Assembly (NCBI GenBank): GCA_001785865.1
Contig: MFUZ01000006.1
Location: 176,880 to 240,879, forward strand
DNA from: Candidatus Nomurabacteria bacterium RIFCSPLOWO2_01_FULL_41_18
Lineage (GTDB): Bacteria; Patescibacteriota; Minisyncoccia; Phycocordibacterales; UBA9973
Reading direction: 5' to 3'
DNA: 64,000 nucleotides
In this document: positions 54,607 to 59,526 of the stretch, one piece after another
Numbering within the stretch: the stretch's first letter is position 1
Layout of the letters: the number at the start of each line of letters is the position of its first letter
The notes under the pieces: model-generated
Database searches by the model: none
Seen by the model: the letters and a program-made list of their open reading frames with translations, nothing else
What the model was told of the DNA's origin: nothing
Translations under genes and position numbers: made by a program

Positions 54607-55551
54607 ATGACTTACGATTTGATAATAATTGGTGGTGGGCCGGCTGGGGCGGCTGCTGCTGTTTACGCTTCTCGTAAAAAACTTCAAACACTTTTTATAA
54701 CTGCCGAATGGGGAGGGCAATCTGTCGTGTCTGAAAAGATTTTTAACTGGATCGGGACAACTTCCCTTTCGGGTAATGAGCTCGCGGACAATTTCAAAAA
54801 ACATGTTTTAGCTAATGCTAAAAGCGCTGAAAACACAAATCCTACTTTAGAAGTAAAAGAAGGCGAGAAAGTAACTAGTATAGAAAGACAGGGAGAATTA
54901 TTTTTAGTCAAAACAGAGTCTGGTCAAGAATTTTTAAATAAAACTGTTCTCATAACCAGTGGCAGTGGACGCAGAAAGCTTATGGCAAAAAATGCAGACA
55001 GACTGGAGCACAAAGGCCTCACTTATTGTGCTTCTTGTGATGGACCTCTTTTTGAAGGGCAAGATGTAATAGTTATTGGTGGAGGCAATGCAGGCTTTGA
55101 ATCTGCTGCTCAGCTCCTCGCCTATTGTAAATCTGTAACACTTTTGCACAGAAGTGAGAATTTCCGTGCGGACGAAATAACTGTGGAAAAGGTTCTAAAG
55201 AATCCAAGGATGAAGGCTATTAAAAATCTGGATATTTTGGAAGTAAAAGGCGATAAATTTGTGGAAGGAATAGTTTATAAAGACAAAATTACAGGTGAAC
55301 AAACAGAACTAAAAGTCTCAGGAATTTTTGTTGAAATAGGACAGATTCCAAATACTGATTTCATAAAGGACCTTGTTCCACTTGATTCCATTGGGCGTAT
55401 TAAAATAAATCCACTAAACCAAAAAACAGAAGTTCCGGGCATTTGGGCGGCTGGCGACTGCACTGATGTCCTCTATCATCAAAACAACATCGCTGCCGGC
55501 GACGCTGTGCGGGCACTTGAAGATATTTATCTTGCGATACATGCAAAGTAG
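54607..55551 (+). CDS. trxB: Thioredoxin reductase
   Basis: GGGPAGAAAA FAD motif, the redox-active CASCDG, and an NAD(P)H motif GGGNAG. Confidence 0.9.
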   Translation: MTYDLIIIGGGPAGAAAAVYASRKKLQTLFITAEWGGQSVVSEKIFNWIGTTSLSGNELADNFKKHVLANAKSAENTNPTLEVKEGEKVTSIERQGELFLVKTESGQEFLNKTVLITSGSGRRKLMAKNADRLEHKGLTYCASCDGPLFEGQDVIVIGGGNAGFESAAQLLAYCKSVTLLHRSENFRADEITVEKVLKNPRMKAIKNLDILEVKGDKFVEGIVYKDKITGEQTELKVSGIFVEIGQIPNTDFIKDLVPLDSIGRIKINPLNQKTEVPGIWAAGDCTDVLYHQNNIAAGDAVRALEDIYLAIHAK

Positions 55552-55562
55552 CATTTACACAA

Positions 55563-55590
55563 AAAAACACCCTGAAGGTGTTTTTTTGTG
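55563..55590. terminator. Bidirectional terminator ACACCCTGAAGGTGT flanked by A-run and T-run
   Basis: aaaaaaacaccctgaaggtgttttttt. Confidence 0.65.
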
Positions 55591-55606
55591 TGTGTAATCT
55601 ATAAAT

Positions 55607-55777
55607 TTATTTCTTATCCTCCATTCCATGCCCCTTTGGATCTGCCATGCAACATTGGCCTACTGGTTTGCCAGATCCACAAAAACACTTTTCCATCATT
55701 CCACAGCACGCTCCGTACATTTTTCCAGATCCACATTTGCAATCCTCCATTAATTTTGCTTTTTGTGTTTCGTCCAT
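55607..55777 (-). CDS. Unannotated 56-aa protein with two tandem SEC-C metal-binding motifs
   Basis: Hand translation of the reverse strand gives MDETQKAKLMEDCKCGSGKMYGACCGMMEKCFCGSGKPVGQCCMADPKGHGMEDKK. The two motifs are CxCGSGKxxxxCC. It is below the 60-aa cutoff of the ORF track. Confidence 0.55.
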   Translation of the reverse strand: MDETQKAKLMEDCKCGSGKMYGACCGMMEKCFCGSGKPVGQCCMADPKGHGMEDKK

Positions 55778-55940
55778 ACTTTTTAAATAAATTAAATTAT
55801 AATTGTAATTGTACCGAGAGATACGAGTGACTAAGACGCATCTATCATACTCGTCTATTATACCATAAATTGACTAGAGATTTTTTTTAGGATAATCTTT
55901 TAGAGAAAACAAGCAGTCAACCCTTAACGGAGACAAAAAC

Positions 55941-56552
55941 ATGATCTTTAAGCAAGCACTCAACAGGCGGAAGTTTGTTCGGAATTTCGGCATCCTGTCG
56001 ACAACTCTTTTAGCACACAAGGGAGTCGCCAGCATCACCAATTTGGTTTCGTCTCGACTGAAATACGAAAAAGTGGTGGTCAACGGCACGGAGATTTTCC
56101 GAGTTGTTGCAACACCTTCACCAACAAATTCAGTTTGGGAACTGCAACAGTCTCTGGATGCAGGAACGTCATGGACGACTATCACAAACGCCACTTCTAT
56201 TGGTGGGGGCAAAATCCAATGGGATGCGTCGTCGATAAAAAAAGCCGAATTTTTTCGGGCAAAGATAGTCACAGCAACAATCACGGTCCCAAACAATACT
56301 CCTTATGACATCCCTTTGATTGAGGGGCAAAAGTTATTTGACGCCATGGAAAGCCTTAAATTGGTTATTCCATCGTTCACTTTCACCTCCCAGTTTCACA
56401 CTGGTCTCGGTCAGTTTGTGACCAGCATCAATGGGACGAGCCAAGGAGGAGGCTTGAAGTGGATCCTATTCGTCAACGGAGTCTCCTCGACCAAAGGAAG
56501 CTCACAATTAGCGCTAAACGCAGGCAACCATATGGAATGGCGCTTAATCTAA
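55941..56552 (+). CDS. Secreted protein with a Tat-like signal (RRKFVRNFG) and a C-terminal DUF4430-like domain
   Basis: C-terminus GQFVTSINGTSQGGGLKWILFVNG...NAGNHMEWRL. It has its own TTGACT promoter and a GGAG RBS. Confidence 0.5.
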   Translation: MIFKQALNRRKFVRNFGILSTTLLAHKGVASITNLVSSRLKYEKVVVNGTEIFRVVATPSPTNSVWELQQSLDAGTSWTTITNATSIGGGKIQWDASSIKKAEFFRAKIVTATITVPNNTPYDIPLIEGQKLFDAMESLKLVIPSFTFTSQFHTGLGQFVTSINGTSQGGGLKWILFVNGVSSTKGSSQLALNAGNHMEWRLI

Positions 56553-56569
56553 TCGGTTTTATCGGTAAC

Positions 56570-56610
56570 AAACACGGCTGGTAAGGGTTTCCCTTGCCAG
56601 CCTGTTCTTT
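56570..56610 (+). terminator. Rho-independent terminator GGCTGGTAAGGG-tttc-CCTTGCCAGCC plus T8
   Basis: 12-bp stem followed by TTCTTTTTTTT. Confidence 0.7.
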
Positions 56611-56816
56611 TTTTTACTTGCAACTATTTTTAAAGAGAATATAATATGTTTACTGTTATATGGTGGAAATGAGGTTAGATTCCTCTACTGTGCCGCAACG
56701 GTAATATCATAAATTTTATGATTAGTCCGGTCTTCATGTAACAGAGCTTCCGAGCAGAAGATTTTTTCATAGAAACTTTTATGATATCTTCCCGCCCGGG
56801 TAAGATATTTTTTTTA

Positions 56817-56894
56817 TGTGACCCTTCTAAATAATCAGGCCTTCGCTCTGAGACTCAGGCTCGAAGAGGTCATGGTGAGTAAAACCGAACCATG
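56817..56894 (+). promoter_or_regulatory. Start-codon-embedding leader element (copy 2 of 3), expanded form
   Basis: TGACCC...CTCAGGcTCgaagaGGTCATGGTGAGtaAAAcCGAACCATG. The final ATG is the CDS start. Confidence 0.5.
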
Positions 56895-57401
56895 AAAAAT
56901 CCAAAAAAACTATATATTGAAACAATTATTTTATTATTTTTTTGTGTTGTTATATTTTTTGTATATACAAAAGAAGAGAAAATCACCACCCCGTCTCAAG
57001 TAAAAACCGAAGCTCCCCTCCTTGATAAGGAGGGGGTTCCGGCTGGTAATTTAAAAAAGAACCACCTCGCCTCTGGCACTCCTCCTCAACAAGGAAGAGA
57101 GGAAACTATCCCAGAAAATACTCAATCTGCAACTGTCCTAGCTGGAGAAATGAACATAAATTTATCATTTCTCCCAAATACTATTTTCTATGATGCACTC
57201 ATACAAGCAAGAGATGCTAATAAAATAACATTTTCCGGTAAAAATTATCCTGGGCTTGGATTTTTTGTAACCGACATCGGCACCCTGCATGCAGGCAGTA
57301 GAAAATACTTGATTTATTACATTAATGGGAAGGAGGCGACCGTCGGCGTCTCGGCTTATACACTCAAAAAGGGCGACGTCATCGAGTGGAAATTGGAATA
57401 A
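56892..57401 (+). CDS. Secreted protein with a C-terminal DUF4430-like domain
   Basis: Signal-anchor MKNPKKLYIETIILLFFCVVIFFVY. C-terminus GFFVTDIGTLHAGSRKYLIYYINGKEATVGVSAYTLKKGDVIEWKL. Confidence 0.5.
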   Translation: MKNPKKLYIETIILLFFCVVIFFVYTKEEKITTPSQVKTEAPLLDKEGVPAGNLKKNHLASGTPPQQGREETIPENTQSATVLAGEMNINLSFLPNTIFYDALIQARDANKITFSGKNYPGLGFFVTDIGTLHAGSRKYLIYYINGKEATVGVSAYTLKKGDVIEWKLE

Positions 57402-57402
57402 C

Positions 57403-57453
57403 ATGACCCATTCGAGAAAACCTCAGGGTCATGGTGAGTATAATCGAACCATG
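57403..57453 (+). promoter_or_regulatory. Start-codon-embedding leader element (copy 3 of 3), with a perfect TATAAT 7 nt before the ATG
   Basis: ATGACCCATTCGAGaaaacCTCAGGGTCATGGTGAGtaTAAtCGAACCATG. It starts 2 nt after the upstream stop codon. Confidence 0.55.
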
Positions 57454-59526
57454 ACAAATATATTAAAATTGAGTTTGTTGTGTCTGATGGTGTTTAGTTT
57501 TACTGTAAATATTTATGCAGAAGATACTGAAATAGTTGATCCAGAACCAGTACTCCCTCCAGCCGAAATTCCTCTAGATCCAATTCCAGATCCCGTGCCA
57601 GAACCTGATCCAGCACCAACAGTTACATTTATAATTAGAAATGGTGATACATTGATCTACCAAGACACAACCCCTCTTCCTGACATAGAAAATGATAGAA
57701 ATGTATTATCAGTTTTGCAATCTATTGATGAATCAAGTGATGCATTTTCTATAACAAACATTCAAGAATTTTCTTTCGGTAAATATTTAAAATGCATATT
57801 ACCAACTGATGCGACAGAGCTATGCGACAATTGGCAATACGCCGTCGGAAATTTGACGCCTTTCTCGAGCATAGATACTACAATGCTCGTAGGCGGCGAA
57901 ACAGTAGGCATATATTTCGGCACATCGCACCAGCTCGTCTTGAGCAACGAACGCATTACTGAAGGCGGATCATTGACTGCCACTGCTCAAAAATATAATT
58001 ATGAAACCAACGCATGGGATATATTGGAAGGTGTCTCCGTGGGCGTGACCCTGCCAAATCCCGATGACGCCTGGAATCCGATAGTGGTCTCGACCCACCC
58101 TGTCGATGATGTGGGAATAGCAACTATCACCATCGCCGAAGAAAACACATTCACACTCGGCATCGTGGAAGATTTTTACTTTCCTTCATACACCGTAGTC
58201 GTCGAAAAATCCGAAGAAGACGGCGAAAATGGAAGCGAGAATGAGGGAACGAACGGAAGCAACCCTACCCCACACTCTTTCAGCACCGCAGACGCTTTGT
58301 CGTATCTGAAAAGCATGCAAAGCGAAGACGGATCATTCGGAGACTCCGATCTGTACACAGACTGGGCAGGAATTGCTTTTGGATCTATGAATGTAGGCGG
58401 AAGTTCAAAAACTAAAATTCTTTCTTATTTTGAATCTAATAACGAAATTAGTTCCCTTTTGACCGACAATGAAAGGCGTGCGATGACACTTCTCGCGCTT
58501 GATAAAAATCCATATTCTTTTGGTGATGATGAAGTAAATTACATAAAAGCTATTGTGGATGAGTTTGATGGTGAACAGTTTGGTGATGCAGACTTAGTTA
58601 ATGATGATATTTTTGCTTTGATTCCACTTCAAAATGCTGGTTACAATGAAAACGACGATATGATTATAGAAGACATCACTTTTATAATTTCAAAACAAAA
58701 AAGTAACGGCTCATGGGAAGAAAGCGTAGACGTCACAGCGGCAGCTATCCAAGCACTTGAAGCTTTTGATGGAGTAGATGGGGTTTCAAATGCACTCTCG
58801 CAAGCAAGTGCTTATCTCGAAAATGAACAAAACAGTGACGGTGGTTGGGGTAATGTTTCTTCTACAAGTTGGGCAATGCAAGCAGAAAGTGCGCTAAATA
58901 CGTCATGGTCAAAAAATGGAAAAGATGGACTTGATTATCTAGCGACAGGGCAAGAAGAAGACGGCGCAGTTTCCCCTACCGAAGAGACACTTGAAAATCG
59001 CATTTGGGCAACGAGTTATGCAGTTGCCGGAGCTTCGGGAAAGTCATGGGGTGAAATTATGAATTCAGTTTCAAAACCATCAAATCAAGAAGAGAATTCT
59101 GGGAATAATAATGAAAATGATTCAGATGATGAAAATGATTCTAGAGATGACACAGAAGATGAAATAGAGGATGTTGCTCCAGAAGAAACCCAAATTAAAA
59201 CAGTTGTCTGCCCTGTCGGAGATTTTTTTAACGCGACGACTGGAGAGTGGTGCACCGAATTTGTGGTGATAAATAATCCACCAATTATTAAACAAGAAAC
59301 AAAAATAGTAAAAAAAATAGAGATAGTGGAAACTCTAGCGGAAGAAAAAACATTAGGAGAACAAACTTTAACAACAACAGAGACCCTGACAGCAACAGCT
59401 ATCGGTACATTACCTACCGAGCAAAGTGTGCCACCGGAAAAAACTTCCAGTACGACCCCGATTGTTCTCGGAACTCTCGGAGGAATCGTTCTTCTTTATA
59501 TTGCCGCTAAGTTTTTGATCAAATAA
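57451..59526 (+). CDS. Large surface protein with an N-terminal DUF4430-like region, prenyltransferase/squalene-oxidase-type alpha-alpha toroid repeats, an acidic linker, and a Thr-rich C-terminal anchor (TM plus basic tail)
   Basis: The likely true start is MTNILKLSLLCLMVFSFTVNIYA (a signal peptide). The track ORF starts 42 codons earlier and runs through the leader element. Repeats: SEDGSFGDSD..., QKSNGSWEES..., EQNSDGGWGN... and GQEEDGAVSP.... C-terminus ...TLPTEQSVPPEKTSSTTPIVLGTLGGIVLLYIAAKFLIK. Confidence 0.6.
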   Translation: MTNILKLSLLCLMVFSFTVNIYAEDTEIVDPEPVLPPAEIPLDPIPDPVPEPDPAPTVTFIIRNGDTLIYQDTTPLPDIENDRNVLSVLQSIDESSDAFSITNIQEFSFGKYLKCILPTDATELCDNWQYAVGNLTPFSSIDTTMLVGGETVGIYFGTSHQLVLSNERITEGGSLTATAQKYNYETNAWDILEGVSVGVTLPNPDDAWNPIVVSTHPVDDVGIATITIAEENTFTLGIVEDFYFPSYTVVVEKSEEDGENGSENEGTNGSNPTPHSFSTADALSYLKSMQSEDGSFGDSDLYTDWAGIAFGSMNVGGSSKTKILSYFESNNEISSLLTDNERRAMTLLALDKNPYSFGDDEVNYIKAIVDEFDGEQFGDADLVNDDIFALIPLQNAGYNENDDMIIEDITFIISKQKSNGSWEESVDVTAAAIQALEAFDGVDGVSNALSQASAYLENEQNSDGGWGNVSSTSWAMQAESALNTSWSKNGKDGLDYLATGQEEDGAVSPTEETLENRIWATSYAVAGASGKSWGEIMNSVSKPSNQEENSGNNNENDSDDENDSRDDTEDEIEDVAPEETQIKTVVCPVGDFFNATTGEWCTEFVVINNPPIIKQETKIVKKIEIVETLAEEKTLGEQTLTTTETLTATAIGTLPTEQSVPPEKTSSTTPIVLGTLGGIVLLYIAAKFLIK

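Follow-up and report, generated by a model that had tools for sequence, protein, structure and literature searches.

A conserved 56-residue protein with two SecA-type metal-binding motifs in a groundwater Nomurabacteria genome

SecA-like metal-binding domains (MBDs) are defined by the ligand motif CXCX8CH, which some bacteria have as CXCX8CC, by a serine (Ser-889) that hardly varies and by an aromatic residue, Tyr-893. Zinc is bound in vitro, iron is preferred, the serine is needed for that preference, and SecA, YecA and YchJ all copurify with iron. YchJ (UPF0225), which carries two SecA-like MBDs, was reported in 2026 to be a transcription factor of Salmonella that senses reactive oxygen species (ROS), with the vicinal cysteines of its C-terminal SEC-C motif acting as a reversible ROS-sensing disulfide switch (PMC13377102; PDB 9L6B, 9VXG). 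Here we describe a 56-codon gene on the reverse strand, at positions 55607-55777 of a 64 kb stretch of contig MFUZ01000006.1 (hereafter the window), in Candidatus Nomurabacteria bacterium RIFCSPLOWO2_01_FULL_41_18, a groundwater bacterium of the Candidate Phyla Radiation (CPR; Parcubacteria-type). Its predicted product is a free-standing miniprotein with two SEC-C motifs in tandem, and the four cysteines that coordinate zinc in the crystal structure of the YchJ N-terminal motif have equivalents in it (PMC13377102).

A conserved gene for a tandem SEC-C protein

The open reading frame (ORF) runs from an ATG at 55777-55775 to a TAA at 55609-55607. Its translation, MDETQKAKLMEDCKCGSGKMYGACCGMMEKCFCGSGKPVGQCCMADPKGHGMEDKK, is exactly that given by an earlier reading of the letters alone (the sequence-only reading), which had proposed a genuine small gene here. 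ORF length alone is no evidence, with 77 ORFs of at least 30 aa across a 7.5 kb stretch of this A+T-rich DNA, and a longer ORF of 80 aa (55588-55830, forward strand) lies antisense to the gene. The frame is nevertheless more than chance because it has a Pfam match above threshold, is conserved with a ratio of non-synonymous to synonymous substitution (dN/dS) of 0.04-0.10, and is opposed by antisense frames that are lost in orthologues. Four orthologous DNA sequences gave dN/dS values of 0.039-0.097 at dS 0.93-1.9, where synonymous sites are near saturation, and differences are concentrated at third codon positions (0/4/15 by position in one example). An antisense gene was considered and rejected, as all three antisense frames gain stops in several orthologues.

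In a word-indexed search of 5.8 billion proteins, the identical protein (P0001) turned up on at least 12 public contigs (the longest of 313 kb), where its gene had been called, and carried a precomputed SEC-C match. Beside it stand nine relatives of 63-91% identity, all of 56-82 aa, and all eight cysteines, F32, P47 and H50 are invariant in the alignment of close homologues. The description of the gene as unannotated was therefore a product of the 60-aa ORF cut-off used by the sequence-only reading, below which the gene does fall; public data already hold the call. Conservation of the frame in relatives, on which that reading had made its proposal depend, was evident from 10 close homologues at first pass and from an intact frame in 13 species-level CPR genomes. 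Genomes with the gene include Candidatus Staskawiczbacteria, metagenome-assembled genomes labelled Saccharibacteria and a 'Nomurabacteria' genome with the same ftsA-ftsZ-trxB synteny as the window and 88% identity. The protein is also encoded at 17 metagenome loci, several of which duplicate genome loci; one contig cuts the 5' end of the gene, and it is intact wherever the contig spans it. Overall the frame is intact in about 30 loci. The 56-aa coding sequence at 55607-55777, assigned on its translation, the identical public protein, dN/dS and the broken antisense frames, is a genuine gene that is strongly conserved and held by strong purifying selection.

The protein matches Pfam SEC-C (PF02810) at 27.5 bits against a gathering score of 20.4 (E = 2.9e-6) in two stretches, the better covering residues 13-26, which bears out the SEC-C assignment of the sequence-only reading. 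SEC-C is the only Pfam family above threshold, and no NCBIfam model came near its own cut-off. Both CxCGSGKxxxxCC units that had been described are present, as C13-x-C15-x8-C24-C25 and C31-x-C33-x8-C42-C43. The only two occurrences of CxCGSG in the six-frame translation of the window lie inside this ORF, where 0.01 would be expected per shuffled window. Knuckle 1 (55703-55741, reverse strand) reads C13-K-C15-G-S17-G-K-M-Y21-G-A-C24-C25 and aligns to 1TM6, 1OZB and chain C of 9L6B. Knuckle 2 (55649-55687, reverse strand), which reads C31-F-C33-G-S35-G-K-P-V39-G-Q-C42-C43, is delimited by the second Pfam stretch and by conservation. The knuckles are joined by five residues, G-M-M-E-K, that resemble the G-R-N-E/D-P of SecA. 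A predicted N-terminal helix (residues 3-10 by DSSP within the region 3-11, ETQKAKLME; 55747-55771, reverse strand) precedes them; it is modelled with a predicted local distance difference test (pLDDT) score of about 90, and alignments show it conserved in the CPR subfamily as MDExQKAKLMA. Cysteine makes up 14% of residues, and there are seven methionines and a conserved His50. Peptides of the protein usable for metaproteome matching are (K)MYGACCGMMEK and CFCGSGKPVGQCCMADPK.

Sequence matches in the PDB over the knuckle were to the SecA C-terminal MBD (1TM6, 1SX0, 1OZB), both YchJ motifs (9L6B, 9VXG) and 2JQ5/2I9W. An AlphaFold2 model built with 74 family sequences (pLDDT 86, predicted template modelling score 0.67) predicts two equivalent bridge-plus-turn knuckles. 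Against the PDB, Foldseek matched this model to YchJ knuckles only, at 0.6-1.0 A over 16-18 residues, with E values of 5-8 that are non-significant because the knuckle unit is tiny. A similarity of residues 19-52 to the C-terminus of influenza B PB1 (4WRT_B, 6QWL_K, 6F5O_B; CCNLFEACF...KPVGQ) is gapped, has E of about 0.005-0.14 and was judged to be chance. A defence or phage protein was likewise rejected, as PADLOC and PHROGs gave sub-threshold matches only, to SEC-C tails of larger proteins.

Compared with the SecA MBD, both knuckles share the CXCX8C(C/H) spacing and the G-S-G-K core. In each, the serine two residues past the second cysteine aligns with Ser-889 of SecA and with the YchJ serine. 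Knuckle 1 also has a Tyr-893 equivalent, Y21 (Y, F, A or N across the family), and knuckle 2 is preceded by the G-x-x-E-x lead-in. Unlike its SecA counterpart, the module is free-standing and duplicated rather than the tail of an 800-900 aa ATPase, and the fourth ligand is cysteine rather than histidine, a variant known in some SecA. The aromatic residue is replaced in knuckle 2 by V39 (A, V or M in relatives). The basic KKYK cluster with which SecA docks on SecB is absent from both knuckles (GKMYGA and GKPVGQ, against GKKYKQ, GKKYKH or GKKFKK), and the apo protein has a net charge of about +1 where the SecA tail, with its sequence taken partly from the 1TM6 alignment, has +5. The KKYK cluster marks the SecB-binding subclass rather than the SEC-C domain as such, and by profile score, ligand spacing and serine each knuckle qualifies as a SecA-like MBD.

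Among characterised proteins YchJ alone has two CxC...CC-type SEC-C motifs, and it gave the best Foldseek and phmmer matches in the PDB; the JGI labels several family members 'uncharacterized protein YchJ'. In contrast to the miniprotein, with its five-residue gap, YchJ has its motifs on either side of a central domain longer than 100 aa, and it binds DNA through a basic C-terminal patch of which the miniprotein has no counterpart. The NCBIfam equivalogs of YchJ type score it at 9-17 bits against cut-offs of 120-158. YecA/AscA provides a third comparison, as the SecA-like MBD of YecA binds iron and docks on SecB and ribosomes; it is however a single MBD with a basic cluster, at the C-terminus of a UPF0149 chaperone domain that the miniprotein lacks by Pfam.

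The miniprotein belongs to a sizeable family. An exhaustive profile search of 1.84 billion representatives returned 103 clusters, mostly of 37-100 aa, at E up to 1e-3, 16 of them at E up to 1e-10, and a second, indexed search gave at least 100 proteins among the matches listed at E up to 1e-5. The ligand motif CXCX8C(H/C) is kept as a tandem pair in 72 of 74 aligned members. The exact 31-residue core CxC-x8-CC-x5-CxC-x8-CC is found in 64 of the 74, a five-residue linker in 67 of the 72, and exactly eight cysteines in 52 of the 74 (median length 54 aa). Seven of the eight cysteines (all except one of the C25/C43 pair) and S35 are invariant in these 74 members, while conservation is 90% or higher for S17 and for at least one of C25/C43. 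Typical family proteins are of about 45-75 aa and occur free-standing or as a C-terminal appendage; the larger proteins that end in the tandem module include DUF378 and DUF4383 membrane proteins, an RNase_H_2-type exonuclease and others. Members come from Staskawicz-, Vogel-, Buchanan-, Parcu- and Peregrinibacteria, and from Deltaproteobacteria, Omnitrophica and Actinomycetia. An extra C-terminal vicinal cysteine pair (...ECC, ...GCC or ...ACC) is seen in Deltaproteobacterial and Omnitrophica members (P0034, P0040, P0174, P0180, P0188), although the Deltaproteobacterial protein P0135 of locus L051 does not have it.

Other matches were discarded. Long multi-stretch profile matches of 572-811 aa proved to be NHL-type repeats (FCGDGGPA...) or low-complexity sequence, and about 23 genome and 60 metagenome loci from pattern scans were ordinary SecA C-termini (Pelagibacter, planctomycetes, others) or single-motif tails of other proteins. 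Database names for family members are 'SEC-C domain-containing protein', 'SEC-C metal-binding domain-containing protein' and 'hypothetical protein', besides the JGI label already mentioned. Neither a Pfam or NCBIfam model nor a paper dedicated to the free-standing tandem architecture was found; the family is labelled automatically in databases, with no description or study found in the literature. The free-standing MBD pair with fixed spacing is a new architectural variant of a known domain, and the window copy is an ordinary member of the family.

Possible roles of the two metal centres

We propose, with a probability of about 0.45, that the 56-aa product is a two-metal (Fe or Zn) thiolate miniprotein that functions in redox or metal stress and is not a partner of SecB. 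The gene would be expressed as a monocistronic unit and yield a compact cytosolic metalloprotein, in which a short N-terminal helix is followed by two SecA-type knuckles on a fixed five-residue linker. Each knuckle would hold one metal ion, iron or zinc, through the four cysteines of CxC...CC, with the conserved serine adjoining the metal site as in the MBDs of SecA, YecA and YchJ. As the protein has no other domain, its activity is expected to come from the pair of metal-thiolate centres and the conserved surface that surrounds them. It may carry single electrons as rubredoxin does, served by pyridine-nucleotide flavoproteins (the TrxB-like enzyme encoded beside it, for example), or may alternatively be a thiol/metal switch that changes state upon cysteine oxidation or metal loss. 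By analogy with the characterised MBDs we infer strongly that both knuckles bind metal, one Fe or Zn ion apiece through four cysteines, and only weakly that the role is in redox or metal stress. The latter derives from a theme among neighbouring genes, the invariant iron-favouring serine, the YchJ disulfide precedent and the conserved surface of residues 13-47. Nearly the whole of this surface is conserved in the CPR subfamily, which suggests a specific macromolecular partner rather than bulk metal buffering. The suggestion of the sequence-only reading that the protein is a metal-binding module fits the family-wide conservation of the eight cysteines and of both Ser-889-equivalent serines.

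Rubredoxin provides a functional analogy only. It too is a protein of about 50 aa whose whole function lies in a four-cysteine metal centre, and its genes are often found beside NAD(P)H flavoprotein reductases or oxygen-stress enzymes, comparable with the NorW-like, superoxide dismutase and TrxB-like neighbours of the miniprotein genes. Rubredoxin however has one Fe centre, two CxxCG knuckles and a three-stranded sheet, while the miniprotein motifs are CxC and CC; a rubredoxin relationship was sought and gave no Pfam match at E up to 10 and none among the Foldseek matches in the PDB.

The neighbouring genes are diverse. In the window the gene lies, as the sequence-only reading had it, between trxB and a surface-protein cluster: a TrxB-like gene (54607-55551, forward strand) is convergent with it on the 3' side and a DUF4430 gene (55941-56552, forward strand) divergent on the 5' side. 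This arrangement, with ftsA and ftsZ ahead of the trxB-like gene, recurs in population variants of the window and at loci L011 and L020. The commonest CPR arrangement, at 11 loci, has a divergent DUF5671 membrane protein and UPF0102; no DUF5671 homologue was found in the window, and neither was a SecA gene. A Hint-domain protein lies upstream at four loci, and the large subunit of ribonucleotide reductase is encoded 0.4-1.5 kb downstream at four. Other CPR contexts comprise a PBP with a ribosome hibernation factor, a glutamine amidotransferase with a Mur-type ligase, and, in Vogelbacteria, a peptidoglycan-binding protein with restriction-modification genes. At L012 and L017 the gene is followed by a membrane protein, an HMA-DsbD_2-cupredoxin protein, a cupredoxin and a CopA-type ATPase. 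A NorW/HcaD-like NADH flavoprotein is encoded 100 bp downstream on the same strand at L059, with a hairpin predicted between the two genes, and an Fe/Mn superoxide dismutase directly downstream at L058. In three Deltaproteobacteria (L051, L056, L057) the SEC-C gene precedes a SoxA/TsdA-like cytochrome c and a multihaem cytochrome, with a Crp/Fnr regulator upstream in two of the three and AhpC or hemerythrin nearby. The member from Actinomycetia (L052) is surrounded by an HMA-ATPase, MerR, a glutaredoxin, Crp/Fnr and a PrdB/GrdB-like reductase. Across 13 dereplicated contexts, redox enzymes (TrxB-like, NorW-like, superoxide dismutase, cytochrome c, PrdB-like) account for about five of 26 immediate neighbours, which by a rough estimate is commoner than expected for such genomes.

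Several observations weigh against a redox or metal-stress role. The neighbour tally is post hoc, and a rough binomial test gives p of about 0.01-0.06 depending on the background assumed. The commonest CPR neighbourhood, DUF5671 with UPF0102, has no redox meaning, and neither do those with the Hint-domain protein, the PBP and hibernation factor, the restriction-modification genes or the Mur ligase. The trxB-like gene of the window is convergent, separately transcribed and linked only in the closest relatives. In almost every CPR locus the small gene has its own terminator and thus no operon partner, and clustering of immediate neighbours over about 30 loci revealed no universal one. In SecA itself, the MBD serves structure and docking, not electron transfer.

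A serious competitor, though one we consider clearly less probable than the redox or metal-stress proposal, is that the tandem knuckles form a docking or regulatory module whose metals are structural. The protein would bind the ribosome or another machine recognised by MBDs, and would function as a small factor on the ribosome or by competing for MBD docking sites. SecA and AscA/YecA both bind ribosomes in an MBD-dependent manner, and MBDs are also present on methionine aminopeptidases and on one eukaryotic ribosomal protein. The highly conserved surface is consistent with docking, and the occurrence of the tandem module as an appendage of unrelated proteins is how a generic targeting tag behaves. 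Expression signals are also strong, with a perfect GAAAGGAGGTG Shine-Dalgarno sequence in Deltaproteobacteria and Actinomycetia. However, the basic residues of the docking face are largely missing, and once its eight thiolates bind two divalent ions the protein would be acidic, a poor fit to rRNA or to the acidic patch of SecB. The hibernation factor that adjoins the gene in one CPR lineage means little, since CPR genomes are dense in translation genes.

A metal buffer or metallochaperone seems unlikely. Such a protein would resemble a metallothionein and use its eight cysteines, and the extra C-terminal CC of some members, to sequester or pass on Zn, Cu(I) or Cd. Size and cysteine density do recall bacterial metallothioneins (SmtA/BmtA; again a functional analogy only), and the protein also has its seven methionines and the conserved His50. 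HMA-domain proteins or P-type ATPases occur within a few kb in three phyla, at L012/L017 (CPR), L051 (Deltaproteobacteria) and L052 (Actinomycetia, together with MerR), and the additional terminal CC of Deltaproteobacterial and Omnitrophica members recalls the metal-transfer tail of MerA. In contrast, most contexts contain no metal genes, and at L017 the terminator of the small gene and a new promoter stand between it and the copper genes. Outside the cysteines metallothioneins change rapidly, whereas here the sites are fixed and symmetrical; in the CPR subfamily the non-cysteine positions from 13 to 47 hardly vary and equal the cysteines in conservation, in keeping with the low dN/dS. No Pfam metallothionein match was obtained even at E up to 10, and Met44 is predicted to be a core residue rather than a ligand because the wider family has Phe or Tyr there.

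A role as a secretion accessory, with docking to the Sec machinery or, as the sequence-only reading had suggested among other options, to a SecB-like chaperone, is very improbable. SecA does bind SecB through the same motif, and knuckle 2 with its preceding G-x-x-E-x is SecA-like enough for DNA pattern scans to have drawn dozens of Pelagibacter and planctomycete SecA C-termini. Each motif of the miniprotein nevertheless has a single lysine where SecA, YecA and the C-terminal motif of YchJ have KKYK or KKFKK, and the apo protein is near neutral; the N-terminal motif of YchJ, which likewise has no KKYK, is described as devoid of SecB-binding residues. No Sec gene recurs as a neighbour, with SecY 3 kb away at one locus only. 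SecB is to our knowledge confined mainly to Proteobacteria, and we know of none in CPR bacteria.

That the ORF is non-functional, be it a chance frame of the kind plentiful in this DNA and overlapped by the longer antisense ORF, a decaying SecA-tail fragment or the precursor of a cysteine-rich modified peptide, is for practical purposes refuted by the substitution pattern, with dN/dS of 0.04-0.10, a frame intact at about 30 loci and interrupted antisense frames, and is further opposed by promoter-like boxes and a terminator of the gene's own. A cysteine-rich ribosomally synthesised and post-translationally modified peptide precursor (SCIFF/ranthipeptide-like) was rejected separately, as no radical-SAM or other maturase gene occurs in about 13 distinct neighbourhoods.

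Transcription unit, leader and flanking genes

The small gene and the convergent trxB-like gene share a predicted intrinsic terminator hairpin (55560-55588), which is placed between their stop codons, has an A-tract, a 13-bp stem and a T-tract, and folds at -14 kcal/mol (z = -4.8 against shuffles). An equivalent hairpin and T-run directly follow the stop codon in 13 of the first 16 orthologous loci, and likewise in further loci. With a terminator of its own, the small gene is taken to be monocistronic wherever it occurs. The candidate promoter is an extended -10 element, TGgTATAAT, at 55857-55865 on the reverse strand, about 80 nt 5' of the ATG; alignment of upstream regions places a TATAAT or TACAAT box at comparable distance in orthologues. 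A consensus promoter scan instead picks TTGACT-17-GATTAT at 55920-55892, and an alternative proximal -10-like TATAAT (55796-55801, reverse strand) lies 19 nt before the ATG, with TATTAT or TATAAC in its place in two loci that share the synteny of the window.

Shine-Dalgarno sequences are nearly absent from the window genome, with three weak matches at 41 gene starts, so their absence from the small gene is normal here. Many window genes instead have TATAAT 6-8 nt before the ATG (for example 54607, 5473, 25669, 61145 and 62519), a pattern that implies widespread leaderless mRNAs in this genome. The TrxB-like gene itself appears leaderless, with TATAAT 7 nt before its ATG. In the Deltaproteobacteria and Actinomycetia, which do use Shine-Dalgarno sequences, all four members examined (L051, L052, L056, L057) have a near-perfect GAAAGGAGGTG 5-7 nt from the ATG, which suggests high translation rates.

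Orthologues also share a leader element, rAAAGGTCG(C/T)gG-AAAA, situated 8-16 nt 3' of the TATAAT box and 33-49 nt before the tandem SEC-C ATG. It is present in about 15 of 26 distinct CPR loci (examples are L019:5958, L017:3098, L024:5968, L072 at about 1297, L068, L071, L075, L058 and L059), and four more have it further upstream with repeat-like insertions between. Elsewhere, 2 x 212 kb contain AAGGTC[GC] 38 times. The element, as rAAAGGTCGCGG, is non-palindromic and has no Rfam match. It is not found at 55778-55940 of the window, which together with L011 and L020 has another conserved leader, ATAGAT...TTAGTC...TCTCGGTACAATTA. A riboswitch or other known RNA was sought in the leader or tail of the window gene and in two orthologous leaders, where Rfam at E up to 10 returned noise only. 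Repeat-rich insertions of about 100-170 nt, which resemble miniature inverted-repeat transposable elements, separate the promoter or leader element from the ATG at L026:5800-5995, L022, L023, L067, L070/L073 and L076. The leader thus tolerates or attracts insertions.

Restriction-modification genes adjoin the small gene in three unrelated loci (L007:313-4108, L012:3485-5109, L053:4446-7130) and encode N6_N4 methylases with ResIII, EcoO109I-like or BsaWI-like nucleases, with AbiEii in L007. Insertion beside a gene with strong termination is a likelier explanation for them than a functional link.

The product of the window 'trxB' gene scores 267.5 bits against TIGR01292, below the 343-bit equivalog cut-off, and 266 bits against the C-terminal half of AhpF; TrxB-like is, on these scores, the safe name. 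The surface-protein cluster on the other side (55941-59526, forward strand) encodes two DUF4430 proteins of 203 and 169 aa and a 733-aa protein. The latter has an alpha-toroid segment resembling squalene-hopene cyclases and prenyltransferases, acidic low-complexity linkers and a C-terminal membrane anchor; the start of its ORF overlaps the preceding gene, and public callers favour 679-707 aa. Eukaryotic cobalamin carriers consist of two halves, a DUF4430 domain and an alpha/alpha toroid, and by analogy the cluster may be a surface system for ligand capture, possibly of corrinoids.

Significance of the free-standing tandem module

The SecA-type MBD is among the most widespread small metal sites of bacteria, and its role beyond SecB docking is debated, both as to iron or zinc and as to a structural or regulatory function. 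The redox-sensor role of one carrier, YchJ, was shown only in 2026. Nothing in our analysis shows a new mechanism. The gene is an example of the conserved small proteins that are hidden by ORF length cut-offs, and it is held under strong purifying selection in reduced CPR genomes and is found again in at least four further phyla. Made up solely of the two knuckles, the protein represents a minimal natural system for the question of what a SecA-type MBD does alone, and one that lends itself readily to expression, metal analysis and electrochemistry. A further possibility, which we regard as doubtful and offer as speculation from sequence and context, is that tandem knuckle miniproteins are an unrecognised class of small iron-thiolate redox proteins and a second, independent solution to the job of rubredoxin. 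Either they would carry electrons, as di-iron proteins, for NAD(P)H flavoproteins of TrxB-like or NorW-like type, or they would switch in response to ROS or metal; they would be kept in minimal CPR genomes and controlled in most CPR lineages via the 5' leader rAAAGGTCGCGG. If this were true, the MBD of SecA, YecA and YchJ would have originated as, or would double as, a redox sensor.

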